Shown: positions 3,884 to 22,712, counted from the stretch's first letter. The stretch is 64,000 nucleotides of DNA from Candidatus Poribacteria bacterium (GCA_965215265.1 OZ244048.1:32001-96000); one strand, 5' to 3'. Notes: generated by a model not told the origin, from the sequence alone. Numbers and translations are program-made.

Positions 3884-5239
3884 TTGAACCATAGAAAACG
3901 TATTCTAGGCACGCCGCACTGTTGCAAACGTCTATTGCAAAGTCGGTTCTTCATCTTATGTTTCATCGTTACCTTAGGAGTAAGTCCTGCTATGGCTGGC
4001 GAATGGCCGAGTTGGCGTGGCGCTCAACAGAACGGTACATCGGCTGAAACCAATTTGATTTCTAGCTGGTCGGTATCCGGAGATAACCTCCTCTGGCACG
4101 CAGAATTTATAGGCCGTTCTACACCTATCGTCTTAAATGAACGAGTGTACGTTATCGGGCGTACTGGTGAAGATATCACACAGCAAGAGCGTATTGCCTG
4201 TTTTGACGCAAAAACAGGTGAACTGCTTTGGAGCCACGAATTTAATGTCTTTCACACAACAATTTCCTTTAACCGCGTCGGTTGGGCGAGTCCTATAGGT
4301 GATTTGGAAACAGGAAACATCTACGTTCATGGGGTACAAGGGCTATTTTTCTGTTTTGATAAAGATGGTAATATTGTGTGGTCACGGTCGCTCACAGAAG
4401 AATATGGCAGGATTTCTGGTTACGGAGGTCGCATCCATACGCCGATTATCGCTGGAAATTTAGTCGTAATCAGTTACCTGAATTCAGGCTGGGGCGAGCA
4501 AACCGCTACACGGCACCGTTATTTTGCATTTGATAAACAGACTGGCGAATTAATATGGGTATCCACTCCGGGCGGTAGACCGCTCGACACGACCTATTCA
4601 ACACCGGTTGTTACGGAGATTGATGGACACCCTCTAATTATTGGTGGAAATGCCGATGGCAGCATTTATGCAATGAAGCAAGAGACCGGTGAAATGATAT
4701 GGGGCTTTAAGTTAAGTCAGCGCGGGATTAATACATCGGTTGTGGTTGAAGGTACTAAGGTCTACGCCTCACACGGTGAGGAGAACATAGATAGTACGAC
4801 AATGGGACGCGTTGTCTGCATTGATGCCACCGGCACAGGCGATGTTACCACTACGCATGAAGTCTGGCGATATGATGGGGTTAATTTTGGATACTCCTCT
4901 CCTACGATTCACGCGGGCCACGTCTACATTGTGGATAATTCGGCGAACGTTCACTGCCTCAACGCCGAGACCGGCGAATTACTTTGGGAACACAGCATTG
5001 GTACTGTCGGAAAGGGTTCGCCTGTCTGGGCAGACGGGAAATTGTACGTTACAGAGGTTAACGGCAAATTTCATATTCTGCAACCGACAGAAGAGGGGTG
5101 TGAATCCCTCGATGTAGAGCAGATTAACAGAAAAATTGACAGCCATTATGTAGAGATCTACGGATCGCCTGCAATTGCGGATGGGAAAATCTATTTTACC
5201 ACCGAAGAACACATCTATTGTATTGGGAGTATGAAATGA
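3884..5239 (+). CDS. Secreted PQQ-binding-like (BamB-type) beta-propeller protein
   Basis: Signal peptide, 'EWPSWRG', repeated 'FDAKTGELLW', 'SSP' and 'GSPAIADGKIY' blades. Confidence 0.88.
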   Translation: MNHRKRILGTPHCCKRLLQSRFFILCFIVTLGVSPAMAGEWPSWRGAQQNGTSAETNLISSWSVSGDNLLWHAEFIGRSTPIVLNERVYVIGRTGEDITQQERIACFDAKTGELLWSHEFNVFHTTISFNRVGWASPIGDLETGNIYVHGVQGLFFCFDKDGNIVWSRSLTEEYGRISGYGGRIHTPIIAGNLVVISYLNSGWGEQTATRHRYFAFDKQTGELIWVSTPGGRPLDTTYSTPVVTEIDGHPLIIGGNADGSIYAMKQETGEMIWGFKLSQRGINTSVVVEGTKVYASHGEENIDSTTMGRVVCIDATGTGDVTTTHEVWRYDGVNFGYSSPTIHAGHVYIVDNSANVHCLNAETGELLWEHSIGTVGKGSPVWADGKLYVTEVNGKFHILQPTEEGCESLDVEQINRKIDSHYVEIYGSPAIADGKIYFTTEEHIYCIGSMK

Positions 5240-6180
5240 TGAAAATTTCTTGTAGAAGCAATTTGCTGATCGCGAGTCTTTGTGTCATAGTTTGCTGCAT
5301 CGTGGCCGGATGCGCTAGTAAAGAGGTTGCTCTGGTACCCAGCGAACGGATGCAATCAAGAGAGCCTGCGGTGTCTATTTTGCTAACCCCCGCTGAAAGC
5401 TTAACCGATAGGCAACCTGTTCAATTCACACTTATAGCTTTTGATGTAAACGGGAAGCGTACGAACAAAATTGGCAACAGCGAATGGGGGCTCATAGGTT
5501 TAGCAGGAACTGTCCAAGATGGGTTATTCACACCTGATAAAAGTGCGGGAGCACAAGCCGGAACAGTCGTAGTCCGCTCGGGTGCCATGAAAGCGGCGGC
5601 CCGCATCCGGGTTATTCCGCCACTCCCATGGACAGAAGATTTTGAAGCAATGGAGCCGGAAAAAAGCCCATCCCACTGGATCGGTTCAACAAGGAAGTTT
5701 TTCATCCGAGAAAAAGATGGCAACAAAGTTCTCGTTAAAACACCTGTCCAGCGCGGGTTAAACCGTTCGAACGTCTACATCGGTCCGCCGAAGATGAAAG
5801 ATTACACTATCCAAATTGACCTTATGGGCACGAAAGATAAACGCAGGCTCCCCGATATGGGGCTAATTGCAAATCGGTATACGTTGGACATGCAAGGTAG
5901 ACATCAACGTTTACAAATCCGTTCATGGGCATCTGACCTTCGTATGGCAAAGACGATAGATTTCGCTTGGGAAACCGATGTCTGGTATACCATGAAAATG
6001 GGCGTAGAAATTATTGATGGCAAAGCGATTATCCGTGGTAAAGTATGGCGGACTAGTGAGCCTGAACCGGATGCGTGGACACTGACAGCCGAAGACCCGC
6101 TCCCGAACGTGGAAGGCAGCCCCGGCATTTACGGATACTCTGCAACTGAAATTTATTACGACAATTTAAAGGTATGGTGA
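5236..6180 (+). CDS. Lipoprotein with Ig-like and lectin-like (jelly-roll) region
   Basis: ATGA overlap with the upstream stop; lipobox 'IVAGC'; 'WTEDFE', 'WYTMKM', 'GKVW', 'YYDNLKV' jelly-roll pattern. Confidence 0.65.
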   Translation: MMKISCRSNLLIASLCVIVCCIVAGCASKEVALVPSERMQSREPAVSILLTPAESLTDRQPVQFTLIAFDVNGKRTNKIGNSEWGLIGLAGTVQDGLFTPDKSAGAQAGTVVVRSGAMKAAARIRVIPPLPWTEDFEAMEPEKSPSHWIGSTRKFFIREKDGNKVLVKTPVQRGLNRSNVYIGPPKMKDYTIQIDLMGTKDKRRLPDMGLIANRYTLDMQGRHQRLQIRSWASDLRMAKTIDFAWETDVWYTMKMGVEIIDGKAIIRGKVWRTSEPEPDAWTLTAEDPLPNVEGSPGIYGYSATEIYYDNLKVW

Positions 6181-6183
6181 TAT

Positions 6184-7719
6184 ATGCAAAAGAATTATAC
6201 GACGGCAACAAGTGCGTCGTCAATTATCAGAGGGCAAGGGCTTGTAACTTGCACAGATACCATTAAAATCATTAACGCAAATACGACATTATGGCGGTTT
6301 TCTGCCCTTATCGTTGGACTTCTCTTGAGTCTTGTAATTCCTTGCACCGCTGCCAAAAAGGAAATCGCGCTGTGGGGTGGCACGCTCAGTAGAAACATGG
6401 TCTCCGATGAAAAAAATATACCTGCAACATGGAATTATGAAACCGGCGAAAATATAAAATGGACAGCACAACTGGGCTCGCAAACGTACGCCGGGCCGCT
6501 TGTTATTGGAGGCAAGGTATTTGTTGGGACCAATAACCAAGCACTCCGAAATCCAAAGTTAACAGGTGACCGGGGTGTCATCATGGCGTTTCGTGAAGCA
6601 GATGGTAAATTTCTCTGGCAGTCAACGCACACCAAACTGCCCTCCGGGCGCGTTAACGACTGGCCGCAACAAGGTGTCTGCTCAACCCCGTTTATTGAGG
6701 GCGACCGGCTCTACTATATCTCCAACCGCTGTGAAGTTGTCTGTGTAGATACGGAAGGCTTCTTAGATGGCGAAAACGATGGTCTCGTTACAGACGAGGC
6801 AGAGACGAGTGAGATTGATGCAGATATCATCTGGAGTTATGATATGATGGATGAGTTGGATGTCTTTCCACACAACCTCGCCACCTGCTCTCCGCTCGCT
6901 GTAGGTGATTTGCTTTTCCTAGAGACAAGCAACGGTGTTGATGAGGGACACATCCACATTCCTTCTCCTGATGCCCCCAGTTTTATTGCGTTAAACAAAA
7001 ACACAGGGGAACTTGTCTGGGAAGATGCTTCCCCGGGCGAAAATATACTTCATGGCCAATGGGCAAATCCGGCTTACGGCGTTATAAAGGGTGTACCACA
7101 GGTTATTATTCCCGGTGGTGATGGTTGGATCTATGCGTTTGAGCCGGAAACCGGGAAGATTATCTGGAAGTTTGACTGCAACCCCAAAGACTCAGTGTGG
7201 GAACTCGGTGGGAGAGGGACCCGAAACAACATCATTTCAACCCCGGTTGTCTACGAAGATAGAGTCTACATTGCCGTCGGTCAGGATCCAGAGCATGGCG
7301 AAGGCGTAGGACACCTCTGGTGTATTGATGCATCTCAGACGGGTGATATAACGGAGACTGCCGCTGTGTGGCATTTCGGTGATGAACAATTTAACCGGAC
7401 TATGTCCACAGCTGCTATTAGCGAAGGGCTGCTCTACATATCTGATTTGAGTGGATTCCTCTATTGCTTAGATGCAAACACCGGAGACCTCTATTGGAAA
7501 CATGACACCTATGCTGCTATTTGGGGCTCGCCCTTTGTCGTAGATGGTAAGGTTTACCTCGGCGATGAAGATGGGGATGTCGTTATCTTAAAAACGGGTA
7601 AAACCGAGCAAGTCCTGTTTGAAACCAACATGGGAAGTGCTGTTTACACAACGCCGGTGGCGAAAGATGGCGTACTATACATCGTAACCCGTAACATGCT
7701 CTTTGCCATCTCAGAATAG
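6184..7719 (+). CDS. PQQ-binding-like beta-propeller protein
   Basis: 'WGGTLSRNM', 'LGSQTYAGP', 'LNKNTGELVW', 'WGSPFVVDGKVY'; the true start may be downstream. Confidence 0.88.
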   Translation: MQKNYTTATSASSIIRGQGLVTCTDTIKIINANTTLWRFSALIVGLLLSLVIPCTAAKKEIALWGGTLSRNMVSDEKNIPATWNYETGENIKWTAQLGSQTYAGPLVIGGKVFVGTNNQALRNPKLTGDRGVIMAFREADGKFLWQSTHTKLPSGRVNDWPQQGVCSTPFIEGDRLYYISNRCEVVCVDTEGFLDGENDGLVTDEAETSEIDADIIWSYDMMDELDVFPHNLATCSPLAVGDLLFLETSNGVDEGHIHIPSPDAPSFIALNKNTGELVWEDASPGENILHGQWANPAYGVIKGVPQVIIPGGDGWIYAFEPETGKIIWKFDCNPKDSVWELGGRGTRNNIISTPVVYEDRVYIAVGQDPEHGEGVGHLWCIDASQTGDITETAAVWHFGDEQFNRTMSTAAISEGLLYISDLSGFLYCLDANTGDLYWKHDTYAAIWGSPFVVDGKVYLGDEDGDVVILKTGKTEQVLFETNMGSAVYTTPVAKDGVLYIVTRNMLFAISE

Positions 7720-7820: not shown

Positions 7821-8900
7821 ATGCAAATGAAACTCTCTCAAAAAATTACGAAAGCCCAAACCGAACTCGATGCCCACGTGAGGGACATTGTCAACTGGCA
7901 TTTTAGTCCGGAGACTGGCTGCCCTTTCTGGTTGGAGTTTGCTGAAACCCTTACTTTTGATCCAAAAAAAGAAATTGCTGGTTACGCAGACCTCAAACGC
8001 CTTGGGCATTTTCAAGATGAGTGGCTCCGGGGTGGCCCGGTGCGGCGATGGGTGCCAAAGGCATACGCGAATCAACCGATTTACGTGTTTGAGACCGGCG
8101 GTTCCACCGGCATCCCGAAGTGCCGGATTAGCGTCCAAGATTTCCATATCGATTATGAGCAATTTAGCACGACACTCTCTGATGAGGGATTCCCGCTCGG
8201 CAGCGATTGGCTCATGCTGGGACCGACAGGGCCCCGGCGTTTACGGCTTGCTGTTGAACACCTCGCCCAACATCGTGGCGGTATCTGTTTCCTTGTAGAT
8301 CTGGATCCACGCTGGGTGAACCAACTTGTGCGGTACGGCAAGCACCAAGAATTGGATGCTTACAAAAATCATGTCATCGCGCAAGCACTCAACGTCCTGA
8401 GGGCGCATGAAAACGTTCAGTGTCTTTTTACCACCCCTAAGCTGCTTGAAGCATTGTGTGAAAAAATTTCGTTGCAAAAAGCCGGCATTAAGGGTATCTT
8501 TTGTGGTGGAACGGAGATGGATGCACAGTTTCACCGATTTGCGCGTGAAGAGCTCGTTCAAGGCATCGATTTTGTCCCTACCTATGGCAATACGTTGATG
8601 GGGCTAGCTACTTGCAAACCATTTAATCCATCGGATAGCTATGCCATAATCTATTACCCGCCCCAACCACGTGCTGTGATTGAATTGGTAAATCCGGCGG
8701 ATCCGGAGGAACCGGTTGATTATGGCGAAACGGGGCGTGTCATGCTCACAACGTTGACAAAAGAATTTTTCATGCCGCGTTTTTTGGAGCGCGACGAAGC
8801 TGAACGTGCAAAACCGATTCCGGAGTACCCTTGGGACGGTGTTGAGAATCTACGCCTACTCACAGAGCTCCAAGAAAGCGTTGTCGTGGGTGTTTACTAA
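7821..8900 (+). CDS. EhpF/LuxE-like acyl-adenylating (ANL-fold) enzyme
   Basis: 'WHFSPETGCPFWL', P-loop-like 'ETGGSTGIPK', 'GPTGP', 'DLDPRWV', 'YGETGRV' and C-terminal 'VGVY' resemble the phenazine-modifying enzyme EhpF as I recall it. Confidence 0.75.
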   Translation: MQMKLSQKITKAQTELDAHVRDIVNWHFSPETGCPFWLEFAETLTFDPKKEIAGYADLKRLGHFQDEWLRGGPVRRWVPKAYANQPIYVFETGGSTGIPKCRISVQDFHIDYEQFSTTLSDEGFPLGSDWLMLGPTGPRRLRLAVEHLAQHRGGICFLVDLDPRWVNQLVRYGKHQELDAYKNHVIAQALNVLRAHENVQCLFTTPKLLEALCEKISLQKAGIKGIFCGGTEMDAQFHRFAREELVQGIDFVPTYGNTLMGLATCKPFNPSDSYAIIYYPPQPRAVIELVNPADPEEPVDYGETGRVMLTTLTKEFFMPRFLERDEAERAKPIPEYPWDGVENLRLLTELQESVVVGVY

Positions 8901-9012: not shown

Positions 9013-9827
9013 ATGAATATTGAAAACCGAACCGTTTTTTCTAACGACAACTTGTTTGTTCTTCGGGGCTTAGACAGCGAGTCTATAGACTTAATTTATT
9101 TGGATCCACCCTTCAATTAGGAATTATGCCGCTCCTATAGGGAGCCAGGCGGCAGGCGCAGCGTTTAAAGATACGTGGACGTTATCGGATGTTGATAATG
9201 CATGGCATGGCGAGATTGCCGACCGTGAACCTGCGTTGTATCAAGCGATCACGCCGCTGAGTTAACGCATGGCAAAAGCATGAAATCTGATCTGATTACT
9301 ATGGCGGTGCGCGTGATAGAGATGAAACGCGTTAAAAAAAACGGGAGTATCTATCTGCATTGCGATCCGACAGCCAGCCATTATCTGAAGGTGATGATGG
9401 ATAGCATCTTCGGAAAAAATAACTTCAGGTCTGAGATTACGTGGAAGCGTACAACCTCTACGCAAAAAGGATCTCAGCATCGTAGCACACGGTGGGGCAA
9501 CAACGCTGATATACTTCTGTATTATGCTGCATCGCCATCCACATGCTTGCGTCCAGAAAGAGAATTGTTTGTATACAGGTGCCCAACACCAATCTATGTT
9601 ATGATAACCCTTGCATAAATCTCGTCTGAGCCGTCCGGTGTTTTGACTTTAAAGACATAACCTAAGAAATCTCCGACGAGATCTACATCGGATTTAACAC
9701 AACATAACCCTTTATGGTACGGAGATAGACAAAAAAGTTTGTGAACCCGCATCCGTCTGTTGCAAAGGGACGAGGCATGTAGGAGGAATTGATCACTCGT
9801 TTAAAAGGACAAGGTGTTCTAAAATAA
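9013..9827 (+). pseudogene. Degraded site-specific DNA methyltransferase
   Basis: ATG 9013 gives 'MNIENRTVFSNDNLFVLRGLDSESIDLIYLDPPFN*'; frameshifted 'AAFKDTWT' and 'GSIYLHCDPTASHYLKVMMDSIFG..FRSEITWKR' follow; possible tail 'EELITRLKGQGVLK*' ends at 9827 (end less certain). Confidence 0.75.
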
Positions 9828-10012
9828 AGAAGTAGAGATTTGTAGAGCCTAAATACCTGTTTGGATGTCCACTAACAATATAAGAAGGGTTTGAAATCGT
9901 GCTGGGCCGGAAAGTAAGACTTGGTGGTATTTGCGAATTCGGATTTTGTTGGAGGCACTTTGTCCGCCTCCGTCCAATGAAAGTTCAATATAACTCAAAG
10001 AGGAGCCTGACT

Positions 10013-10717
10013 ATGCCAACGAAAATTGAAAAAATGTTCCGGTCACCCTATTCGGTACCGAACGGTTTGCAAGTTACAGACGATGGCTTATGGGTCGTCG
10101 ATCAGATTACTGACAGAGTCGCTTTAGTTGAAATCATAGCAGATCCGGACTATACCGTGCCGAAACTCATCCGCGACATCTCCAGTGAGTCTTCTAACAC
10201 CAGCGGTATGACGTATGGCGAAGGCGCGCTCTGGCTAGCAGCAAATGGCCCTGGAGAACGCTGGCGTCCGGTTAGAGACACAGATGCCAAACCCGGTGCG
10301 AGCGAGATTTTCAAAGTCGACCCTGATACCGGTGAAACCCTTGGACGCTATCCAATCCCTGATGGCGGGGGAACGCACGGTGTCGAATATGACAATTACG
10401 ATGAAGGACATCTCTGGGTTCAGACGCTGAAAAACCGTGAGATACACAAGATTAGCACTTCAGACTGGTCTATCCAGCACACGTTGCCCCTACCGTACGA
10501 CCGGGGACACGGCACTGTTCGTGTTCCAGACGGCCTCTGGGTAACACATACCTCCAACCGTGTTATTGCCAAGCTCGACCTGGCAGATGGCACTATCCTA
10601 GACGAGATCGAGGTAGATGAGGCGTACCCTGAACCGCATGGGCTTTCTATCTATGGAGAAGATTTTCTGTACTGCGATGCTGCCTCCGGCTGGATCGCAA
10701 AGATTACACACACATGA
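10013..10717 (+). CDS. Small cytoplasmic beta-propeller protein (Vgb/glutaminyl cyclase-like)
   Basis: SD GAGGAG before ATG 10013; repeats 'PNGLQ..DGLWVVD', 'SGMTYGEGALWLA', 'PHGLS'; ATGA overlap with the next gene. Confidence 0.65.
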   Translation: MPTKIEKMFRSPYSVPNGLQVTDDGLWVVDQITDRVALVEIIADPDYTVPKLIRDISSESSNTSGMTYGEGALWLAANGPGERWRPVRDTDAKPGASEIFKVDPDTGETLGRYPIPDGGGTHGVEYDNYDEGHLWVQTLKNREIHKISTSDWSIQHTLPLPYDRGHGTVRVPDGLWVTHTSNRVIAKLDLADGTILDEIEVDEAYPEPHGLSIYGEDFLYCDAASGWIAKITHT

Positions 10718-12123
10718 TGAGACACATTCCAATTTTGCGAGCGGGACGTTCCTACAGAAGTTTGAACACCGTTTGTCTTTACCATATTAAAACAGGTGAG
10801 CCCTTAGCCGAAGTCAGCCAAGCCAATCGTGGGCTCATTTCCAAAGACTTGGGCGACATGAGACTCCACAAGCAGGCACTTGGACAGCATTCTGTTGCCG
10901 AATTGCTTTCAATTTGCACAGAAGCTGCGAGGCTTTTCACAACGGCCGAACTTCCGCTTGACCAAGATGTTCAATCCCCCACGGATTATCTTCGACAGGT
11001 CTCGGGCACAACAGGGCTTCCGGAAACTCTCTGTCAACAGAATATGGATAAGATTCAGAGTGTGCTGGAGAAAATGCCAGAGGTCCTTGATGGGTTAACC
11101 CGTGGTTTAGATTTGTCTCTCCTTGATACTGGCTGGGGTGCCCAAAACGGCCGCACGCTGAGTTACGTTTGTGAAACGGATATGCTGTCAGCCGTGCTTC
11201 CGAGCAATTCTCCCGGTGTCCACTCGTTGTGGTTACCTGCCATCCCGCTAAAAGTCCCTCTCGTGCTAAAACCGGGGCGAGAGGAGCCCTGGACTCCGTA
11301 TCGGATTGCCCAAGCGTTTATCGCTGCAGGGTGTCCCGCCGCCGCATTTAGTTTCTACCCGACTGGTCACGCGGGTGTAAACGAGATCCTGTTCCGTTGT
11401 GGCAGATCTATGCTATTCGGTGGTGGTTCAACTGTTGCACCGTGGATGAACGATCCGTGCGTCGAAATCCACGGACCAGGTCGAAGCAAAATCATCATGG
11501 ATAAGGAGCAGAGTGCACACTGGAAAAACTATTTGGAACTGATTGTAGAATCAGTCGCCAAAAATGGTGGTAGATCCTGCATTAATGCCTCTGGCGTATG
11601 GGTAACGTCCCATGGGCACGACATTGCAATGGCGTTAGCAGAACGTTTAGCACAGATACAACCGAAACCGCTTGATCATCCTGAAGCACAACTCGCGGCA
11701 TGGGCGAATCCCAAAGCCGCCCACGGCATCTCATCCCTAATTGACCTGCACCTTAAAGAACCTGGGGCAACAGAATTGACAGCGAGTGACCGAGTCGTTG
11801 AGTTAGATGGCTGTACCTTCCTCAGGCCGACTGTGATATGGTGTGAGGATGCGGAGCATCCATTAGCAAATACAGAGTTTCCCTTTCCATTCGTCAGTGT
11901 TGTCGAAGTACCATCAGCGAAGTTAGTAGAATCCATTGGTGCGACACTGGTTGCCACGGCAATCACAGAAGACCCGGCACTTATTGGAGAATTGCTAGCA
12001 ACTCCGTTAATCGACCGGTTGAATCTCGGACCAATCCCGACAACACAAATTTCTTGGGATAGTCCGCACGAGGGAAATCTGTTTGCATTTCTCTATCGGC
12101 AACGGGCGTTTCAATTTGCGTAA
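10714..12123 (+). CDS. Aldehyde dehydrogenase superfamily, LuxC/EhpG-like acyl reductase
   Basis: 'VLPSNSPGVHSLW', 'LKPGREEP', catalytic Cys in 'GGRSCINAS', 'EFPFP'; 'IHGPGRSK' replaces the ALDH 'LELGGK' motif. Confidence 0.8.
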   Translation: MMRHIPILRAGRSYRSLNTVCLYHIKTGEPLAEVSQANRGLISKDLGDMRLHKQALGQHSVAELLSICTEAARLFTTAELPLDQDVQSPTDYLRQVSGTTGLPETLCQQNMDKIQSVLEKMPEVLDGLTRGLDLSLLDTGWGAQNGRTLSYVCETDMLSAVLPSNSPGVHSLWLPAIPLKVPLVLKPGREEPWTPYRIAQAFIAAGCPAAAFSFYPTGHAGVNEILFRCGRSMLFGGGSTVAPWMNDPCVEIHGPGRSKIIMDKEQSAHWKNYLELIVESVAKNGGRSCINASGVWVTSHGHDIAMALAERLAQIQPKPLDHPEAQLAAWANPKAAHGISSLIDLHLKEPGATELTASDRVVELDGCTFLRPTVIWCEDAEHPLANTEFPFPFVSVVEVPSAKLVESIGATLVATAITEDPALIGELLATPLIDRLNLGPIPTTQISWDSPHEGNLFAFLYRQRAFQFA

Positions 12124-13535: not shown

Positions 13536-14040
13536 CGATTTTTTTAACGGCCTTTTTTAGCGTCTCCCGCCCCCTATATCCCTCTGCAAGCGAGGTCATA
13601 ATTCGGGTTCGGTTTATCCAATTATTTTTTCTTCATGAAGGAGCAAAATTTTTTATCTATACGTTTTGCCAAATCTGCTATAATAATGGCGTTTACCCTA
13701 TGAGATTGCGAACTTCAGAGAGGTTTTTGCTAATTTTCGCATCATTATTTCGTTAAAACCGTAAAAAAACAAAGAGTTGCATAATATTACAGAATCTGAT
13801 AAACTAAAAAAGTGTAGTACTTACACAGAGTCCATTGTTGTTGGCACAAAGCGTTTAAACAACAAACTATAGTTTCACCTGATTGGGATTTATGCAGCTT
13901 ACTTACGTAGTTTCCAAGATGGTGCAATAAATTGTGCGACGACGAAAAAGTAGGTTTGCAGTTGGGAAACCATTTATCGCCCTTGTACAAACCTTGAAAT
14001 GTTTATTTTAATTAAATTTCTGCTTAAAGGAGAGCAAAAT

Positions 14041-14820: not shown

Positions 14821-15344
14821 GAAACAGAAGGACGAATATCACTGTTAGTGATGTCGTACGGCACGGTTATTTCGCCGCTGCGTTCGGTGATTTAGCGTTG
14901 AACTCTATTGTTAAAGCCGGGGATGTGATTGAAATTCAGGTTGTGGATACAGCAGGGAATCTCATCACGAAGCCGTTAGCGTACACAGTAACATCCGATA
15001 TGCTCAAAACCGCGTTCATCTCTGTCGTGCTTGAAGCGAACCCGCTACCGAAGACGATTGTACTCCTCCAGAATTATCCGAATCCGTTCAATCCAGAGAC
15101 GTGGATTCCCTACCAACTCAGTGAAGCGGCCTCCGTTATGATCACTATCTATGATGTGACAGGCAAGCAGGTCCGCTCACTGGACCTCGGACATCAAGGT
15201 GCAGGATTCTATATGAGTCGTTCCCAAGCGGCCTATTGGGATGGACGAAACGCTGTGAATGAACCTGTCGCTTCCGGTATCTATTTCTATCAGATTGAAG
15301 CAGGGACGTTCTCGGCAACGCGCCGCATGTTGATTCTGAAGTAG
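14817..15344 (+). pseudogene. FlgD-Ig / T9SS-type-A-like C-terminal domain, probably the tail of a larger secreted protein
   Basis: 'LLQNYPNPFNPETWIPYQL..YWDGRN..ASGIYFY..RRMLILK'; no signal peptide. Confidence 0.65.
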
Positions 15345-15366: not shown

Positions 15367-15398
15367 GCAAAGACGCAGAAACAGGTCTGCGTCTTTGC
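15367..15398. terminator. Hairpin, probable terminator
   Basis: GCAAAGACGCAGA-aacagg-TCTGCGTCTTTGC, a 13-bp perfect stem just after a stop codon. Confidence 0.6.
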
Positions 15399-15554: not shown

Positions 15555-16733
15555 GTGAATTCATATCTATCATACAAATTACAGTATAGACAAAACAGAA
15601 AGACCTTTTTTCTGCTGATAGGGTTGGTTTTAATTCTGTTTTCACAGTGTGTGAGCCTTTATTCAGCTTCAAGCGATTGGACAGGTTTTCGGGGTAACCC
15701 ACAGCTCACTGGTGCTGCAGCAACCGAACTCCCGGATGCATTAGAACTTCTCTGGACGTTTCAAGCTGCAGATATGATTGAGGGAACTGCAGCAGTCGTT
15801 AAGGGCATTGTGTACGTCGGGGCGTTAGACGGTTATCTCTATGCAATTGACGCGAGAAACGGCGAACTGCAATGGAAGTATCAAGCCGGTGAGAGCGATT
15901 CTCCAGTTTCAATAAAGGCATCCCCTGCTGTTTATAACGGAGTCATCTATGTCGGGGATGGCGAAGGAGTCTTTCATGCTATAGAGGTGAACGCCGGAAA
16001 ACAGAAGTGGAAGTTCCAATCGGACGGGGAAATTTTCTCCTCGGCAAACTTCGGTGGAGCTAACGTTCTATTCGGTTCCTACGACGGCTTCCTCTATTGT
16101 CTCAATAGAGAGAGTGGTGCCTTAGTTTGGAAATTTGAAACCGAAGGCTACATTCACGGTACACCGGCGATTTTCGGGAATTCTGTGGTTATCACAGGAT
16201 GCGATAGTTATCTCCGCGTCATCAATATTGGTGATGGCAGTCAGACACAACAGGTTTACCTCGGTGCGTATGTCGGGGCAAGTCCCGCGATTTTAGAAAA
16301 CCGGGCTTACGCAGGGACGTACGGTACCGAAGTGCTGGGTGTAGAATTAGGGACAGGCAATATTGCGTGGCGGTATCAACATCCGAAGCGCAGATTTCCG
16401 TTTTTTGCCTCTGCGGCTGTAACCGAAGACGTTGTTATCATTGGGGGGCGCGATAAGATGCTACATGCACTCTCGCCAGATACTGGGGCCCCGCAATGGA
16501 TTTACACCGCTAAATCGCGTATTGAGTCCTCCGCGGTCATTGTCGGCAAACGTGTCTTCTTTGGTACAACCCGTGGCGTTTTGATTGCCTTAGATATATC
16601 GAACGGAGAGCCGGTATGGGAATTCGAAACCGGTTCAGCGATTGTCGCCTCGCCGAGTGTCGCCGACGGTCAGCTGTATATCGGCACAGAGTCAGGTACC
16701 CTATACTGCTTTGGAGAAAAAAATAATCCGTGA
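15555..16733 (+). CDS. PQQ-binding-like (BamB-type) beta-propeller protein
   Basis: Signal peptide, 'DWTGFRGNPQLTG', repeated 'LYAIDARNGELQWKY' blades. Confidence 0.88.
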   Translation: MNSYLSYKLQYRQNRKTFFLLIGLVLILFSQCVSLYSASSDWTGFRGNPQLTGAAATELPDALELLWTFQAADMIEGTAAVVKGIVYVGALDGYLYAIDARNGELQWKYQAGESDSPVSIKASPAVYNGVIYVGDGEGVFHAIEVNAGKQKWKFQSDGEIFSSANFGGANVLFGSYDGFLYCLNRESGALVWKFETEGYIHGTPAIFGNSVVITGCDSYLRVINIGDGSQTQQVYLGAYVGASPAILENRAYAGTYGTEVLGVELGTGNIAWRYQHPKRRFPFFASAAVTEDVVIIGGRDKMLHALSPDTGAPQWIYTAKSRIESSAVIVGKRVFFGTTRGVLIALDISNGEPVWEFETGSAIVASPSVADGQLYIGTESGTLYCFGEKNNP

Positions 16734-16785: not shown

Positions 16786-17052
16786 TTAATAGCTCTTAAT
16801 CACCGCCCAACTTGTGGCTAACTTCCCTTGCGGGTTGACCCCGAGTGCCGCTTGTAAGCCGTTTTCTCAAATGGCGTTAATCTGATCGCCACTCAAATCC
16901 ACATTAAAGATAGCGACTTCATCGAAAATACCGAACATAAATTCGTGGTCGTGGTGGGCCAGAAAGTCACCCATTGTAACCTCCTGCTCCTTCGGATTCG
17001 TGTCCATTGCTTGATCGGTGCCTTGCTTTGATCGAAGTTTACTATACAGCAT
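16786..17052 (-). pseudogene. LamG-like domain C-terminal remnant
   Basis: 'FGIFDEVAIFNVDLSGDQINAI*ENGLQAALGVNPQGKLATSWAVIKSY*' with an in-frame TGA at 16867-16869. Confidence 0.75.
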
Positions 17053-17460: not shown

Positions 17461-17649
17461 TTACAGTGTGATTCACAGTGAAAATGCGATTGAAATTACA
17501 GTTTTCTACTATTCGTGGTTCGACCATGCTAATCTGAACAAAGCGGTTGATCTTGCCCTGCAGCGAACTCACTGAATGCAAAATTATGGGGGTAGGGCAC
17601 GTGGTTGAAAAGCTAAGGAACATATTGAGTTGCTTGAATGGAGAGAGTG

Positions 17650-18984
17650 ATGTCTCAAACACAGCCTGAGCCTGCAACAGCAGGTATAGATTCAAAACAA
17701 ACAACCGTCGGGAGCGTTTTCGTTTCCAATTACCCGCCCTATTCTGTATGGGGTGAATCAGCTATTCCAGATGTGAGGCGCGCCTTGGCAGAACCGCCAC
17801 GGCTGGATACCCCCCTTGGACTGTATCTACATGTTCCGTTCTGTCGCAAACGGTGCAAGTTCTGCTATTTTCGTGTCTATACAGATAAGAACAGTTCGGA
17901 GATTGATACGTATCTGAACGCGCTCGCGAAAGAGATTGAGATTTACAGTGCCAAGCCAGCAATTGCAGGTAGAACGCTGAAATTCGTCTATTTCGGGGGT
18001 GGTACCCCATCTTATATTAGCGTTAACCACCTCAAGACGCTGGTAGAGCGAGTCAAACGCGCGATGCCGTGGGATGATGCGGAAGAGATCGCTTTTGAGT
18101 GTGAACCTGGCACATTGACAAAAAAGAAATTAGAGGCGATCAGAGCCATTGGCGTAACCCGATTAAGCCTGGGTGTTGAGAATTTGAACGACGACATCCT
18201 TGCCGAAAACGGTAGGGCGCACCTCTCCAAAGAGGTCTACCGTATCGCGCCGTGGATACAGGCGTTAGGGTTCGCGCAAGTCAATATAGATCTCATCGCC
18301 GGCATGGTAGGCGAAACCTGGGAGAGCTGGCGGGAAACGGTGGAAAAGACGATAGAACTCGACCCGGATAGCATTACTATCTATCAGATGGAACTCCCGT
18401 TTAATACCGTCTACTCCAAGGATATTCTGGGCGGAGACGCGCTACCGGTAGCAGATTGGAAGTTGAAGCGTGAATGGCACCAGTACGCGAATGAGCAGTT
18501 TGCAAAGATAGGATATCGCCGCTCTAGTGCATATACTATGGTTAAGAAGCAGAAGCCTGCACAATTTGTCTATCGCGATGCAGTGTGGCAAGGGAGTGAT
18601 ATGCTGGGCACCGGGGTTGCCTCATTCTCACATTTAAGCGGAATTCATTTCCAGAACGCGCCGTCATGGGGAGACTATCTCGGACAGCTGGAGCAAAATC
18701 AGTTACCCTTACACCGCGCACTAGCCCCAGCGAACACCGAACAGTTGACGCGCGAGATGATACTTCAACTCAAGCTAGGAGAAATTAAAACCTCCTATTT
18801 TAGAGAGAAATTTAACGCTGATATTCTCACGTTGTTCGCTGATGCATACGAGAAACTGCAGAATGACGGTATGCTGACGTTCACTGAAGATGAAATTCAA
18901 TTAAGCGAACGCGGCCTGCTCCAGGTCGATAGTTTACTCCCTGCCTTTTATGCCCCTGAGTATCAGAATAGACGCTATACTTAA
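17650..18984 (+). CDS. HemN-like radical SAM enzyme (class C methyltransferase-like)
   Basis: 'LYLHVPFCRKRCKFCYF', 'YFGGGTPS', 'RLSLGV', C-terminal HemN_C-like region; lacks HemN 'RNFQGY' and HemW 'HNxxYW'. Confidence 0.85.
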   Translation: MSQTQPEPATAGIDSKQTTVGSVFVSNYPPYSVWGESAIPDVRRALAEPPRLDTPLGLYLHVPFCRKRCKFCYFRVYTDKNSSEIDTYLNALAKEIEIYSAKPAIAGRTLKFVYFGGGTPSYISVNHLKTLVERVKRAMPWDDAEEIAFECEPGTLTKKKLEAIRAIGVTRLSLGVENLNDDILAENGRAHLSKEVYRIAPWIQALGFAQVNIDLIAGMVGETWESWRETVEKTIELDPDSITIYQMELPFNTVYSKDILGGDALPVADWKLKREWHQYANEQFAKIGYRRSSAYTMVKKQKPAQFVYRDAVWQGSDMLGTGVASFSHLSGIHFQNAPSWGDYLGQLEQNQLPLHRALAPANTEQLTREMILQLKLGEIKTSYFREKFNADILTLFADAYEKLQNDGMLTFTEDEIQLSERGLLQVDSLLPAFYAPEYQNRRYT

Positions 18985-19069
18985 GCCGAATCAGGATGCT
19001 GCTCTAGTGATAGAAGAGCGAGTAAATCGGACTATCAACCAGATATACCTTAAAAGCCTCATAATAAAA

Positions 19070-20314
19070 ATGGATACAAAAATACAGTTACGTCGCCTTC
19101 GCTGCATGCTCGCCCCGGTATTAGAGACGAATGCATTTTATAAACAGAAACTCATGGCATCCGGAGTTTCCCATCCAAACGATGTCCAAACATTAGAGGA
19201 TTACCAACGTTTACCCTTTACCACTAAGGAAGAGTTTAGTGCGGACCAGGTGGCACATCCCCCTTACGGCACCAACCTCACCTATCCATTGGAGAAGTAT
19301 ACGTGCCTTCATCAAACTTCTGGCACAACGGGAGAACCGATGCGGTGGTTAGATACAGCAGAGTCGTGGTATTGGTGGGGGAAATGTTGGCGGGAAATCT
19401 ACCGGGATGCAGGCGTGACAGCCGTTGACCGGCTGATGATCGCTTTTACGTTCGGTCCGTTTATCGGTTTCTGGAGTGCTTATCATGGTGCCCAACAGCT
19501 AGGTGCGTTGACAATTCCGAATGGCGGAATGACTTCTGATCAGCGTATACGTGCTATCCTCTACAACGATGTCACTGTGCTGCTTTCCACGCCGACATAC
19601 GCGCTGCGGCTCGCCGAAGCTGCCGAAAAAGCGGGGATTAACCTAGCACGTGAGGCGAGTGTTAACGTTACCATTCACGCTGGCGAACCGGGTGCGAGTT
19701 TATCTTCTACAAAACAGCGCATCGAAAGGCTGTGGGGTGCACGCACTTACGACCATGCCGGGGCGACAGAGGTCGGTGCATGGGGAATTATGTGCCTCCG
19801 ACAGGCAGGAATGCATCTCAATGAAGAGGAGTTCATCTGTGAAATCATTGACCCGGCCACTGGCAAACCTGCTGACGAAGGTGAACTTGTCATCACGAAT
19901 CTTGGGCGCGTCGGTATGCCGGTCATACGATACCGCACGGGTGATTACGTCAAACTAAAAGCGTCGCCATGCGAATGTGGTAAGCAGAGCCGGGTGCTTG
20001 ATGGCGGTGTCAAAGGTAGAATAGACTCCCTCCTCATCATTCGCGGTCTGAACCTTTATCCTACCACGATTGAAAACATCATTTTCCAATTCCCTGACGT
20101 GCTTGAATTTTCCGTGCAGGTTTATCGTGCCGGCACGCTTGATGAACTTGAAATTCAGATTGAATCTAAAAGTCATACGCCTGAACACACGGCAACGGCA
20201 GTAGCCGCTAAGATTCGAGACGTTTTAGGACTGCGCACCATTGTAAAAGCTGTACCAGTCGGTACATTTCCACGAGCGAGTCTCAAAGCGAATAGATTTT
20301 CAGATACACGTTAG
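19070..20314 (+). CDS. Phenylacetate-CoA ligase (PaaK)-like ligase
   Basis: 'LPFTTK', 'HQTSGTTGEP', 'STPTYAL', 'AGEPG', 'YDHAGATE', 'RYRTGD', 'GRID'. Confidence 0.85.
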   Translation: MDTKIQLRRLRCMLAPVLETNAFYKQKLMASGVSHPNDVQTLEDYQRLPFTTKEEFSADQVAHPPYGTNLTYPLEKYTCLHQTSGTTGEPMRWLDTAESWYWWGKCWREIYRDAGVTAVDRLMIAFTFGPFIGFWSAYHGAQQLGALTIPNGGMTSDQRIRAILYNDVTVLLSTPTYALRLAEAAEKAGINLAREASVNVTIHAGEPGASLSSTKQRIERLWGARTYDHAGATEVGAWGIMCLRQAGMHLNEEEFICEIIDPATGKPADEGELVITNLGRVGMPVIRYRTGDYVKLKASPCECGKQSRVLDGGVKGRIDSLLIIRGLNLYPTTIENIIFQFPDVLEFSVQVYRAGTLDELEIQIESKSHTPEHTATAVAAKIRDVLGLRTIVKAVPVGTFPRASLKANRFSDTR

Positions 20315-20366: not shown

Positions 20367-21638
20367 ATGAAAAAAGATCAAAACTATGACATCACTGTTA
20401 TAGGCGGCGGCCCCGCCGGAAGCACCGTTGCAGCCCTTGTTGCAGAGCAAGGGTATCGTGTCTTGCTGCTCGAACGTGAACCACAACCGAGTTTCAAAAT
20501 AGGCGAATCGCTCATCCCGGCAACATACTGGACGTTTAAACGGCTTGGGGTTCTTGACAAACTGCGAACGAGCCACTTTCCCAAAAAGTACAGTGTGCAA
20601 TTCTACTCACGCAACGGAAAAGCCTCTACACCGTTCTACTTCTTTGAAACGAACCCGCATGAAAGTGCTGTGACTTGGCAAGTTTTGCGGAGTGAATTCG
20701 ATCAGATGCTTCTTGAGAATGCTGAAGAAAAAGGAGCGGAAATTCGACGAGGCATGAGAGTAAACGACGTGCTCTTTGAGGGTAACAAGGCGGTCGGCGT
20801 TGTTATCTCGCCCGCACGGCGAGATGCGCGGTGCGAAATCATTCACGCCTCTGTCATCGTTGATTCCACGGGGCAGCGTTCTCTCCTCGGAAGGCAGTTA
20901 AACCTAAACGCGACGGAACCGAACTTAAAAATGGCATCCCTCTTTACCCATTTTGAAGGGGCACACCGCGATACGGGAATTGACGAGGGTGCGACGCTTA
21001 TCCTGCACACCAAGGCGAAGGAATCTTGGTTCTGGTCGATTCCGCTTCCTTACAACTGCACAAGCATTGGCGTTGTCGGGGAATTAGGATATCTGCTTCA
21101 GAATCGCAGGGATTCTAATGGAAAACTGGATGCACAGAAAATATTCGACGAAGAGTTGGAGAAGTGTCCAGCATTGAAGCAACGCCTTAACGGTGCAAAG
21201 CAGCTTTTTGGGATAAAGACGACCAAGGATTTCTCCTATCGCGCCAAACGTATTGCAGGCAATGGGTGGGTTTTGGTAGGAGATGCATTCGGATTTCTAG
21301 ATCCGGTTTATTCAACGGGGCTGTTTTTGGCCCTGAAATCCGGCGAGATGGCAGCTGATGCAATTATGGAAGCGTTTAAAAAGAACGACTTTTCTGAGGC
21401 GCGGTTGGGAAATTTCGGACCGACATTTGTTAAGGGCATGGAAGCGTTCCGGAAATTAGTTTACGCCTTCTATACAAAGGAATTTAGTTTCGCCCGGTTC
21501 CTCGCACAACATCCGGAGCAGCAGGATAATATCATTGATATTCTCAGTGGAGATGTCTTTAGAAAAGACGTAACTTCCCTTTTTCCGGCGATGGCAGAGA
21601 TGTGCCAACTTCCGCCGGACATCCAGTTAATACCGTAG
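20367..21638 (+). CDS. Flavin-dependent halogenase-like oxidoreductase
   Basis: GxGxxG 'IGGGPAG', 'KIGESLIP', Lys in 'FPKKYS', WxWxIP 'WFWSIP', 'GDAFGFLDPVYSTG'. Confidence 0.8.
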   Translation: MKKDQNYDITVIGGGPAGSTVAALVAEQGYRVLLLEREPQPSFKIGESLIPATYWTFKRLGVLDKLRTSHFPKKYSVQFYSRNGKASTPFYFFETNPHESAVTWQVLRSEFDQMLLENAEEKGAEIRRGMRVNDVLFEGNKAVGVVISPARRDARCEIIHASVIVDSTGQRSLLGRQLNLNATEPNLKMASLFTHFEGAHRDTGIDEGATLILHTKAKESWFWSIPLPYNCTSIGVVGELGYLLQNRRDSNGKLDAQKIFDEELEKCPALKQRLNGAKQLFGIKTTKDFSYRAKRIAGNGWVLVGDAFGFLDPVYSTGLFLALKSGEMAADAIMEAFKKNDFSEARLGNFGPTFVKGMEAFRKLVYAFYTKEFSFARFLAQHPEQQDNIIDILSGDVFRKDVTSLFPAMAEMCQLPPDIQLIP

Positions 21639-21740
21639 ACGATTTCTTAGCAGAACTTCTTTTTCAGTCCCAGTGGAGTGGCATGTGACGCGTCAACCGA
21701 AACTTATGGGTAATAGTAAACTAATTTGTAAGGAGAGCAC

Positions 21741-22712
21741 ATGAAAATAATTACAAACGTTATAACCGTAATCTGTCTCATCTCAGCGTTATCCATTAAC
21801 ATGGGGTGCGACAACAGTGCTAAGCGCCGCTATATCAGCATCGGGACTGCTCCTGCCGGAGGCGCGTTTTTTCCCGTGGGTGGTGCAATTGCAGAGGTTG
21901 TTGGTAGTAACCCTCCGGAGAAAAATTGGGAAGTTACTGCTGAAGCGACGAAAGGGACGCAGGAAAATATCCGACATCTTGTGAATGGTGATTTAGAATT
22001 CGCACTTGCGAACGCGGCAATTTCTTATTTTGCTGTGCGCGGTGAAGGTGTGTGGGGAGAACCACACAATATCCGCGTAGTCATGACACTTGCTCCGAAT
22101 GTTGCACTGTTTGTCACACCAAAATCCTCGGGCATCCAAACAATTGCCGATTTGAAAGGCAAACGTGTCGTTGTAGGTCCCGCCGGGGCAGGTTTTGAAC
22201 ATTTCCTTCAGCCTCTACTCGCTGAGCACGGTGTTACATATAAGGATTTTACCGACATTAACAGTACTTACATCGGTGCCGTGGATCTGCTTGCTGACGG
22301 TTCAGCCGCTGCAGCGTTCATGGGTGGGGCAATTCCGACCCCTGCTGTTATCCAAGCCTCTACATCTCAAGACATATTTTTGATTCCGTTTGATGACTCG
22401 GCAACACGGTCACTGTTTAAAAAGTATCCCTTCTTTAATGCAATTACCCTTCCCGCTAATACTTATAAGGGTCAGACCGAACCGTTTGCAACCATGAATG
22501 TAGGCGCGATGCACCTTATCACTTCCGAGAAGGTCGATGAATCCCTCGTCTATCAATTTACCAAGGTTCTGTACACAAATCGTGCGGAAGTTGTCAAACG
22601 TCATGGAGCCGGCAAGGCAATTAATCCGAAAAATGTTGTGAAAAATACCGGCACGCCTTTTCATCCGGGGGCTATCCGTTTTTATCGTGAAATTGGTATT
22701 TGGACCGAATGA
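21741..22712 (+). CDS. TAXI family TRAP transporter solute receptor (lipoprotein)
   Basis: '[20 protein letters not shown]', 'ATKGTQENI', 'DLKGKRV', '[12 protein letters not shown]'. Confidence 0.9.

Follow-up and report, generated by a model that had tools for sequence, protein, structure and literature searches.

A run of plus-strand genes between positions 3,884 and 22,712 of a 64,000-nucleotide stretch of DNA from a Candidatus Poribacteria bacterium (GCA_965215265.1, OZ244048.1:32001–96000; hereafter the window) very probably belongs to one real gene cluster that is conserved in several phyla. The run encodes an EhpF/EhpG-type enzyme pair, a HemN-like radical S-adenosylmethionine (SAM) enzyme, a PaaK-like ligase, a flavin-dependent halogenase, and three exported propellers with repeats like those of pyrroloquinoline quinone (PQQ) proteins. 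We read the window as an eroded, compacted copy of a cluster that processes one small carboxylic acid, most likely aromatic, to a product acting outside the cytoplasm with the propellers, and we put the chances of this whole picture at about even. An earlier note, made from the sequence alone, had described the run as one uncharacterised cluster, and the co-occurrence of its genes on one strand across 80 loci from several phyla bears this out. The genes that it named are real, intact, and on the plus strand, as judged from a listing of the open reading frames (ORFs) of the window and from their matches to Pfam and NCBIfam family models. The cluster members in the window are listed below.

3884–5239, plus strand: exported PQQ_2 propeller 1, 451 residues (Pfam PQQ_2, E 3.4e-29; signal-like N terminus)
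5218–6180, plus strand: lipoprotein-like ORF, 320 residues, likely start ATG 5236 (no family matches)
6184–7719, plus strand: exported PQQ_2 propeller 2, 511 residues (Pfam PQQ_2, E 2.4e-27)
7821–8900, plus strand: EhpF-type adenylate-forming enzyme, 359 residues (weak Pfam AMP-binding match; EhpF in the PDB, E 2.5e-43)
9899–10717, plus strand: small cytoplasmic Vgb-lyase-like propeller, 272 residues (Pfam Vgb_lyase, E 9.7e-8, below the cut-off)
10714–12123, plus strand: EhpG-type reductase of the aldehyde dehydrogenase superfamily, 469 residues (Pfam Aldedh, E 1.5e-12, weak)
15555–16733, plus strand: exported PQQ-like propeller 3, 392 residues (Beta-prop_ACSF4, 222.9 bits against a cut-off of 133; PQQ_2, E 1.6e-50)
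17638–18984, plus strand: HemN-like (class C type) radical SAM enzyme, 448 residues (Radical_SAM, E 2.8e-20, and HemN_C, E 3e-9)
18950–20314, plus strand: PaaK-like aryl/acyl-CoA ligase, 454 residues, probable start 19070 (NCBIfam PaaK below cut-off; PDB 4r1l)
20367–21638, plus strand: flavin-dependent halogenase of the PltA/Bmp2/CndH kind, 423 residues (Trp_halogenase, E 2.8e-27)

Recurrence of the Cluster in Other Genomes

Loci for comparison were found by scanning one genome per species with a five-sequence alignment of EhpG-like proteins. At least 600 stretches matched and 596 were confirmed; the best 80 of these 596, chosen only for their EhpG-like gene, were compared with up to 10 kb on each side. 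Forty-seven of the 80 have at least 8 kb on both sides (full-flank loci), many of the other contigs being short. A window protein was counted as present in a locus when at least half of the query was covered, propellers were assigned by best score, and the counts rest on translated searches because crude ORF calls fail in loci of high GC content. By title, the 80 loci come from Poribacteria (19), Planctomycetota (18), Acidobacteriota (13, plus one Multivoradales), Latescibacterota (9), Armatimonadota (6), Gemmatimonadota (3), Omnitrophota (1), and Lentisphaerales (1), with three labelled Heliomicrobium and six unclassified.

The genes of the window occur together in these loci, the opposite of independent occurrence, in a neighbourhood comparison of the kind that the earlier note had proposed. 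With the first number referring to the 80 loci and the second to the 47 full-flank loci, the EhpF-like gene is found in 58 and 37, propeller 2 in 41 and 27, propeller 1 in 40 and 26, propeller 3 in 29 and 24, the HemN-like gene in 29 and 23, the PaaK-like gene in 16 and 11, and the halogenase in 16 and 13. The domain encoded by 5218–6180 is present in 39 of the 80 and the Vgb-like gene in 16. Three families that the window lacks recur as well: an iron-containing alcohol dehydrogenase (Fe-ADH; 43 and 30), a fourth propeller (18 and 14), and a TonB-dependent receptor (11 and 11). Genes that flank or interrupt the set in the window served as controls, and those for ankyrin, TAXI, TPR, DsbD, and PglZ proteins and ORFs 13999 and 14817 were found in 0 of the 80 loci; the ORF at 12154 was found in two, two PhyH genes in four and two, and a methylase fragment in one. 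The grouping of the cluster genes is far beyond chance.

The arrangement is equally regular. The EhpF-like (58/58), HemN-like (29/29), PaaK-like (16/16), and halogenase (16/16) genes always lie on the strand of the EhpG-like gene, the one exception to the strand rule being a weak, distant propeller-3-like match (23% identity) in locus L061. The EhpF-like gene is upstream of the EhpG-like gene in all 58 of the 80 loci that have it, as is propeller 1 in 40 of 80, and in full-flank loci the halogenase never occurs without the HemN-like gene (13 of 13). Median intergenic gaps are operon-like: 0 nt from propeller 1 to propeller 2, 13 from EhpG to Fe-ADH (22 loci), −4 from Fe-ADH to propeller 3, −8 from propeller 3 to HemN (15 loci), 3 from the TonB receptor to PaaK, and 7 from PaaK to the halogenase. 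The linked set recurs in Poribacteria, Latescibacterota, Gemmatimonadota, Acidobacteriota, Planctomycetota, and Omnitrophota. In Latescibacterota, Gemmatimonadota, and Thermoanaerobaculia the order is propeller 1 (a fused protein of about 750 residues), propeller 2, EhpF, EhpG, Fe-ADH, propeller 3, HemN, propeller 4, TonB receptor, PaaK, and halogenase; in Planctomycetota it is PaaK, propeller 1, propeller 2, EhpF, EhpG, Fe-ADH, HemN, halogenase, and a thioesterase; the Omnitrophota locus has still another order. Examples of complete clusters are those of L015 and L034 (Latescibacterota) and L076 (Tepidisphaeraceae). Pyrinomonadaceae have just EhpF, a secreted hydrolase-like protein, EhpG, a glycosyltransferase, and an ABC exporter. 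That the same genes stay linked while their order varies is our main argument that they work together.

The TonB-dependent receptor passes the siderophore-receptor cut-off (238–249 against 223.5 bits), and its nearest equivalog is Fiu. Additional genes are limited to certain lineages and include a 4HBT thioesterase, a GT4 glycosyltransferase (after EhpG in nine loci, median gap 18 nt), a LolD/DevA-like ABC ATPase with an FtsX-type permease of 1100 residues, and a small four-helix membrane protein. The context of glycosyltransferase, ATPase, permease, and four-helix protein is that of the Pyrinomonadaceae loci L032, L035, L040, L054, and L080, and of L081 and L033. The secreted hydrolase-like protein of L080 has TPR-like repeats, and a large CarboxypepD_reg outer-membrane barrel is encoded nearby. 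In Armatimonadota, Lentisphaerota, and some Planctomycetota, genes for a sodium:solute symporter (SSF) and a DUF3311 protein separate propeller 2 from EhpF. In some Poribacteria (L012, L020, L026, and L038) a creatininase-family gene is found between EhpG and Fe-ADH; among NCBIfam models it comes closest to that of the mycofactocin peptidase MftE (126.8 bits; cut-off, 172). The EhpG-like genes of the Heliomicrobium- or Heliobacteriaceae-labelled loci L037, L041, and L045 are nested in Blastocatellia with branches of about 0.03, which suggests that these contigs are mis-binned or reflect very recent transfer.

The Carboxylate Reductase Pair

The protein encoded at 7821 aligns over its residues 16–359 with residues 23–369 of the 369-residue solved EhpF (PDB 3hgu and 3l2k; E 2.5e-43) and consists of the N-terminal ANL domain only. 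Its segment ETGGSTGIPK (residues 91–100), which we take to be a nucleotide-loop-like motif, is invariant in 29 sequences, as are 113 columns of the same alignment. The nearest named relatives are proteins from Candidatus Poribacteria metagenome-assembled genomes (81–88% identity), the best 120 clusters are 76–99% identical to the window protein, and the EhpF-like proteins of the loci compared here are 53–89% identical across phyla. More distant homologues (31–38% identity) occur in 29 records of a plasmid collection, where they are annotated as AMP-binding protein, phenazine biosynthesis protein, or arylcarboxylate reductase. In all three of the neighbourhoods compared (Pantoea agglomerans, a Streptomyces plasmid, and a plasmid of the haloarchaeon Halalkalicoccus), the gene after the EhpF homologue encodes an aldehyde dehydrogenase family protein of about 465 residues. 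The Pantoea agglomerans pair is embedded among phz-type genes, and the SSF symporter and DUF3311 genes directly precede the EhpF homologue in Halalkalicoccus. The neighbourhood of the Streptomyces "arylcarboxylate reductase" H12 was uninformative.

The EhpG-like protein encoded at 10714 aligns over nearly its full length with the three proteins in the EhpG position, from Pantoea (E 1e-37), Streptomyces (E 1e-37), and Halalkalicoccus (E 2e-32), at 26–27% identity. Its Cys289, in a GGRSC motif, is invariant (alignments A1 and A4). This alignment with three distant EhpG-position proteins and the invariant cysteine, together with the full-length EhpF match, indicate that the EhpF/EhpG identity proposed in the earlier note is right. 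On these relationships the EhpF-like protein would be the activating half and the EhpG-like protein the reducing half of a two-part carboxylate reductase. The alternative label LuxE/LuxC did not hold: neither the 7821 nor the 10714 protein has a Pfam LuxE or LuxC match at E 10, the matches being just AMP-binding and Aldedh, and the label is an analogy only. A library search with the EhpG-like protein returned 1668 relatives at E ≤ 1e-3 and 308 at E ≤ 1e-30. Within a quick tree of the EhpG family (66 of 69 members after length filtering), the window protein lies inside a poribacterial clade; together with the poribacterial relatives of the EhpF-like protein, this makes a poribacterium, probably a sponge-associated one, the most likely source of the DNA.

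Two independent library representatives, P0121 and P0134 (40–49% identical to the EhpG-like protein of the window), combine an EhpG-like domain with a complete Fe-ADH in one fused protein; a shorter one, P0122, has the EhpG-like domain and part of an Fe-ADH. Longer fusions that include EhpF were also found (17), of which 16 are singletons; P0276, which joins EhpF, EhpG, and Fe-ADH, has a frameshift-like tail past residue ~793. For these reasons the EhpF fusions were taken as adjacency and not as real fusions.

The Vgb-like ORF overlaps the start of the EhpG-like gene by 4 nt and, with a scar, occupies the 1.8 kb between the EhpF-like and EhpG-like genes of the window. Its product matches Vgb in the PDB (E 1.1e-7), and its orthologues have about 233 residues. 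The gene is a lineage-specific member of the cluster, lying between EhpF and EhpG, since 15 of the 16 loci that carry it are poribacterial and the other is unclassified.

Halogenase, HemN-like Enzyme, and PaaK-like Ligase

The best solved relatives of the halogenase are 5buk (E 5e-57) and PltA (E 8e-57), followed by 8zop, CndH, ChlB4, and Bmp2. We take GxGxxG, the catalytic lysine, WxWxIP, and FxxPxxSxG to be the motifs of flavin-dependent halogenases; the corresponding segments of the window protein are GGGPAG (residues 13–18), Lys74 in FPKK, WFWSIP (221–226), and FLDPVYSTG (310–318). In an alignment of the window protein with those from 12 of the 16 loci with a match (13 sequences, six groups), GGGPAG, Lys74, W221xW223xI225P226, and F310xD312P313xxS316xG318 are invariant. 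The best 120 clusters are 72–99% identical to the window protein. Two orthologues with 79–80% identity apparently lie on the chromosomes of L007 and L008, so that the halogenase is apparently kept in the genome even where it is unlinked from the reductase module.

The CxxxCxxC motif of the HemN-like protein (residues 69–76) is present in 28 of 28 full-length rows of its alignment, and the region is missing from one truncated row. The closest solved relatives are HemN (E 2.8e-38) and the methyltransferase NocN (E 3e-27). The protein scores below the curated cut-offs for HemN (TIGR00538, 195.9 against 324.95), HutW (180 against 400), and HemW (167.7 against 205.4) and is therefore no orthologue of HemN, HutW/ChuW, or HemW; it is also below the curated cut-off of the STM4012 family. 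In the window its gene runs nearly directly into that for the PaaK-like ligase. The latter protein aligns with PDB 4r1l (E 1.8e-56) and has a PaaK-type C-terminal domain (59.1 against a cut-off of 25) but lies far below the equivalog cut-offs of TIGR02155 (226.7 against 646.3) and NF041878 (233.9 against 700), and the putative ligase encoded at 18950–20314 is PaaK-like only. Family alignments begin near residue 43 of the 454-residue ORF, which makes the ATG at 19070 a plausible start. An NCBIfam housekeeping equivalog cut-off was reached by none of the cluster enzymes, and the cluster proteins are therefore no housekeeping orthologues by NCBI criteria.

Exported Propellers and the 5218–6180 Domain

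Inspection of propellers 1–3 and of the 5218–6180 ORF revealed apolar, signal-like N-terminal segments, the last with a lipobox-like ...AGC. In a crude count of orthologues, apolar N-terminal runs were present in 30 of 34 propeller 2 sequences, as compared with 0 of 45 EhpF and 0 of 13 halogenase sequences; the pattern is weaker for propeller 3 (6 of 18) and propeller 4 (7 of 16). The propellers of the window reach 45, 48, and 98.4 bits with the PQQ-dehydrogenase models TIGR03075/TIGR03074, below the cut-off of 480. Among solved structures they come closest to designed propellers, a PQQ-like repeat protein, and BamB, and to judge from these matches they are generic eight-bladed PQQ-like repeats. 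Propeller 2 orthologues in other loci are 40–88% identical.

In most other phyla, propeller 1 is the N-terminal part of a protein of about 750 residues, and the 5218–6180 ORF is the counterpart of the C-terminal ~300 residues. This domain is a separate ORF in 12 poribacterial loci and fused to propeller 1 in 24 loci; the split, being common to 12 loci, is therefore no sequencing error. The domain itself has no Pfam or NCBIfam match in the window ORF, no Pfam match in two split orthologues, and just weak, stray Pfam matches (E 0.03–0.07) in nine fused orthologues; a search of PDB sequences with its profile gave nothing below E 0.27.

The Copy in the Window

As the earlier note had observed, the set is interrupted in the window by scars and unrelated genes, among them methylase and FtsX fragments, a copy of EhpG codons, and non-member ORFs. 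These features are as follows.

9280–9618, plus strand: scar, N6/N4 DNA methylase fragment, 112 residues (Pfam N6_N4_Mtase positions 38–106 of 221)
12154–13218, plus strand: inserted ORF with LREAGK repeats, 354 residues (no family matches; non-member)
13343–13456, plus strand: scar, 114-nt, 90% copy of EhpG-like codons (source 10947–11060)
13999–14820, plus strand: repeat lipoprotein-like ORF, 273 residues (no family matches; non-member)
14817–15344, plus strand: protein with a type IX secretion system (T9SS) sorting tail, 175 residues (Pfam Por_Secre_tail; non-member)
21741–22712, plus strand: TAXI TRAP solute-binding protein, 323 residues (TIGR02122, 254.9 bits against a cut-off of 84.35; non-member)
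22700–23011, plus strand: scar, FtsX fragment, 103 residues

The composition that the earlier note had given is right in that the enzyme and propeller genes recur together and incomplete in lacking three genes of the usual cluster, those for Fe-ADH, propeller 4, and the TonB receptor. These three were not found in the whole 64-kb window. No remnants of them were detected at E 1e-3, either with representatives against the whole window or with all locus ORFs against four gap regions. Their absence is the reason for regarding the window as an eroded, compacted copy. The site that Fe-ADH occupies in other genomes is taken by the ORF at 12154–13218, and the idea that this ORF is a diverged Fe-ADH was ruled out, there being no similarity. 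Three 18-nt units (the LREAGK repeats) lie within this ORF in the region 12987–13456, the 3′ end of the ORF is duplicated in tandem over about 160 nt (13024–13183 and 13184–13340), and the copy at 13343–13456 reproduces codons 79–116 of the EhpG-like gene out of context. The repeats and the EhpG copy look like a rearrangement scar at the Fe-ADH site of the relatives.

The TAXI receptor, which had been counted as a cluster member, is a genuine TAXI protein that was found in 0 of the 80 loci; it is a neighbour that lies outside the set. A TRAP membrane gene does not follow it, and the FtsX fragment and two tRNA genes are found there instead. The tRNA genes, tRNA-Phe(gaa) and tRNA-Thr(cgt), lie at 23290–23444, right past the FtsX fragment at the end of the plus-strand run, and the pair is a plausible hotspot for the insertions and deletions observed.

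Several other features of the region were recorded. ORF 13999–14820 has two internal repeats of 82 nt (80% identical; at 14278 and 14593) and overlaps the T9SS-tail ORF by 4 nt, and a strong 13-bp hairpin (15367–15398) follows the latter. Between propeller 3 and the HemN-like gene, a gap of 900 nt contains, at 16792–16956 on the minus strand, a short fragment resembling the C termini of a family of about 300 residues that has several copies in L011 and L036. Elsewhere in the window are a full-length N6/N4 DNA methylase gene (35442–37238) and a ResIII helicase gene (31382–34498), and the strongest GC skew of the window (0.24–0.32) is at 32–36 kb. Genes for PhyH-family dioxygenases lie upstream of propeller 1 in the window (351–1082 and 2300–3115), in L015 (2883–3644), and in L023; their association with the cluster is weak and possibly due to chance. 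No riboswitches were found in positions 1–30000 of the window or in seven of the 80 loci, the two tRNAs being the sole matches. Promoter-like (22) and terminator-like (13) sites are not in excess, shuffled sequence giving 27.3 and 19.2.

Relation to Known Systems

The closest precedent for the reductase pair is EhpF/EhpG of the Pantoea agglomerans ehp cluster (PDB 3HGU, 3HGV, and 3L2K), in which a truncated adenylate-forming enzyme of about 360 residues likewise precedes an aldehyde dehydrogenase superfamily protein of about 470 residues. The window proteins are distant from these, however (~31% identity for the EhpF-like and 26% for the EhpG-like protein), and the setting is different: the Pantoea genes accompany phz genes, whereas the core phzA/B, D, E, F, and G families were absent from the window ORFs scanned, and the window pair, split by 1.8 kb, lies among genes for exported propellers, the HemN-like enzyme, the PaaK-like ligase, and the halogenase. 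The absence of a phz, lux, nonribosomal peptide synthetase, or polyketide synthase core, stated in the earlier note, is confirmed among the window ORFs scanned.

A similar layout of AMP-binding protein and reductase is found in GriC/GriD of the grixazone cluster of Streptomyces griseus, where the aryl acid 3-amino-4-hydroxybenzoate is reportedly converted to its aldehyde by a two-part carboxylic acid reductase, with GriC as the AMP-binding and GriD as the reducing component (PMC10179220). Clusters of this type also encode the makers of the acid, and the window cluster does not. NCBI uses the name "arylcarboxylate reductase" for Streptomyces homologues that are 33% identical to the EhpF-like protein of the window. 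GriC/GriD are presumably homologous to the window pair.

The halogenase resembles PltA, Bmp2, Mpy16-type, CndH, and ChlB4 enzymes over nearly its full length (E 5e-57 to 2e-47) and has all four motifs, but the PltA/Bmp2-type systems differ in that family scans of the window gave no carrier protein, pyrrole-forming enzyme, or flavin reductase near the halogenase. The HemN-like protein shares the Radical_SAM plus HemN_C architecture and the CxxxCxxC motif with HemN, NocN, and ChuW/HutW, and differs in remaining below the curated cut-offs. The fusions P0121 and P0134, together with the Fe-ADH gene that follows EhpG in 22 loci, recall AdhE-type fusions; the aldehyde-forming half is EhpG-like, however, rather than the CoA-acylating domain of AdhE, and the window has no Fe-ADH. 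There is also an analogy, and only that, with PQQ, quinoproteins, and PqqU, in that cytoplasmic enzymes including a radical SAM enzyme are combined with exported eight-bladed propellers and a TonB receptor. Unlike those systems, the propellers score 45–98 bits against a quinoprotein cut-off of 480, the receptor scores 29–34 bits against 1200 for PqqU, and no pqq genes were seen.

A recent preprint on sponge microbiomes (Loureiro et al., bioRxiv 10.64898/2026.08.03.742642, August 2026) describes "Halo_AMP" clusters that combine a flavin-dependent halogenase with an AMP-binding enzyme in Proteobacteria, Acidobacteriota, Latescibacterota, and Poribacteria. They frequently have PQQ-like domains, radical SAM enzymes, TonB transporters, glycosyltransferases, thioesterases, and toxin-antitoxin genes as extras; the ligases are BagE/YtkN-like and the halogenases Bmp2-like, and the clusters are orphans without a known product. 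The window has such a combination, its PaaK-like gene (18950–20314) adjoining the halogenase gene (20367–21638), and conforms to the Halo_AMP rule as given in the abstract; to this extent clusters of this kind have already been noticed. The sections of the preprint consulted, figures and supplements aside, make no mention of the EhpF/EhpG/Fe-ADH core, of four orthologous propellers, of a siderophore-type receptor as a regular member, or of a spread into soil, peat, and groundwater. The preprint was the one relevant work found, and in the literature searched no paper named a product or function for the cluster of the window.

Proposed Pathway and Alternatives

From the observed membership, linkage, enzyme families, and intact catalytic motifs we infer the following chemistry. 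The PaaK-like ligase, the EhpF-like enzyme, or both would activate the acid with ATP; the halogenase would place a halogen on an electron-rich ring; and the HemN-like enzyme would modify a carbon, most likely by methylation. The activated acyl group may then be accepted by Cys289 of the EhpG-like protein and reduced to the aldehyde, which in the usual cluster the Fe-ADH, encoded directly downstream of EhpG or fused to it, would reduce to the alcohol; because the window has no Fe-ADH, the aldehyde may be the end product there, unless an enzyme encoded elsewhere takes over. An aromatic acid is the most likely substrate, to judge from those relatives of EhpF, PaaK, and the halogenase that are solved or annotated; the substrates of PltA-type halogenases and of PaaK-type ligases are aromatic. 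The product would have its function beyond the cytoplasm, together with the exported propellers (three to four) that the cluster also encodes, and, in the usual cluster, might be taken up again through the siderophore-type TonB receptor in the manner of a metallophore or diffusible cofactor. Action outside the cytoplasm followed by re-import is suggested by the interleaving of propellers with cytoplasmic enzymes, by the receptor, and by the MacB-type exporter and glycosyltransferase of the variants.

Several observations weigh against this picture. The 12 closest relatives of the window in the EhpG tree keep the propellers, EhpF, the Vgb-like gene, and EhpG, and genes for HemN, PaaK, and the halogenase were all missing within 10 kb; the halogenase was likewise not seen inside the fetched flank of any of the 19 poribacterial loci, although in L026, which has PaaK at +9.5 kb, it may sit just past that flank. 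In Pyrinomonadaceae, which have no halogenase, EhpF/EhpG accompany a glycosyltransferase and a MacB-type ABC exporter, and L030 and L033 have EhpG, HemN, and the halogenase with no EhpF within reach. A scaffold-building enzyme was not found in the cluster. Halogenases of the PltA/Bmp2 clade often need carrier-bound substrates, and no carrier protein or flavin reductase was seen in the family scans of the window. The window copy, without Fe-ADH, propeller 4, and the TonB receptor, may be partly disabled. Finally, the 80 loci, the ones closest to the window among at least 596, form a sample biased toward its relatives, and all come from metagenome-assembled genomes, the taxon labels being those of the records.

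Some of these points would also be expected if two or more independent systems with no common substrate were co-located, EhpF/EhpG/Fe-ADH with propellers 1 and 2 on the one hand and propeller 3, HemN, PaaK, the halogenase, and the TonB receptor on the other. Besides the 12 poribacterial loci without HemN, this division is favoured by the occurrence of EhpF/EhpG with other partners, both in Pyrinomonadaceae and in plasmid phenazine and other clusters, and by 10 of the 47 full-flank loci that have HemN and no halogenase inside the fetched flank. The two modules interleave, however: in Planctomycetota PaaK is upstream of propeller 1 and the halogenase downstream of Fe-ADH, and the gene found between Fe-ADH and HemN is that for propeller 3, at median gaps of −4 and −8 nt. 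The same set is found in six named phyla despite changes in order, and where the halogenase is unlinked it is apparently on the same chromosome; we therefore regard independent systems as unlikely. Somewhat less likely again is a locus for uptake, salvage, or catabolism, in which the propellers would bind an aromatic acid or cofactor from outside, the TonB receptor and the sodium:solute symporter would import it, and activation and transformation would follow in the cytoplasm. The siderophore-type receptor of 11 of the 47 full-flank loci, the SSF and DUF3311 genes between propeller 2 and EhpF or before the Halalkalicoccus EhpF homologue, and the missing scaffold-building enzyme all fit import, but a reduction of acid to alcohol that consumes ATP and NAD(P)H and a motif-complete halogenase are typical of making and export rather than of degradation, as are the GT4 glycosyltransferase, thioesterase, and MacB/DevA-like exporters of the variants.

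An envelope lipid or glycolipid pathway is improbable. In it EhpF/EhpG/Fe-ADH would act as a LuxE/LuxC-type fatty-acid reductase, and the fatty alcohol would be glycosylated and exported to the outer membrane with the propellers and a barrel. The glycosyltransferase that follows EhpG in nine loci and the LolD/DevA-like ATPase with its 1100-residue permease suit such a pathway, and the high identities within the best 120 clusters (76–99% for EhpF and 72–99% for the halogenase) suggest a core-like rather than a sporadic function; against it stand the missing LuxE and LuxC matches at E 10, the aryl acids on which the solved and annotated relatives of EhpF act, and the aromatic substrates of PltA-type halogenases and PaaK-type ligases. 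That genes of one strand merely came together by chance while the genome of a symbiont decayed, as the pseudogene fragments and unrelated ORFs between the cluster genes might suggest, is scarcely credible, being refuted by the comparison of 80 loci with flank controls at 0 of 80. The processing of one carboxylic acid to an extracytoplasmic product could also take a more specific form, which we consider a long shot though slightly less improbable than the lipid pathway: a hitherto undescribed, self-contained cofactor system of at least six phyla, nearly universal in Poribacteria. In it the ligase, halogenase, HemN-like enzyme, and carboxylate reductase would build or alter a small aromatic molecule, redox-active, which would serve the four exported PQQ-like propellers as ligand and be scavenged by the TonB receptor.

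Significance

Joint inheritance of a halogenase, a radical SAM enzyme, and a two-part carboxylate reductase with four distinct exported propellers and a siderophore-type receptor is rare across phyla as distant as Planctomycetota, Acidobacteriota, and Poribacteria. The EhpF-like proteins of different phyla are 53–89% identical, a level of conservation that suggests a single, defined molecule of general use (in metal capture, as a cofactor, or in an envelope function, for example) and is unlike that expected of a strain-specific antibiotic. In the chemistry of sponge symbionts, where brominated compounds still lack producers, the cluster provides a concrete, testable gene set; because the set is also found in soil, peat, and groundwater lineages, some of them in families that include cultured bacteria, such as Tepidisphaeraceae, Chthonomonadaceae, Armatimonadaceae, and Pyrinomonadaceae, laboratory work on the question is feasible. 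If the product should prove to be the cofactor of the propellers, the cluster would constitute a parallel to PQQ and the quinoproteins.

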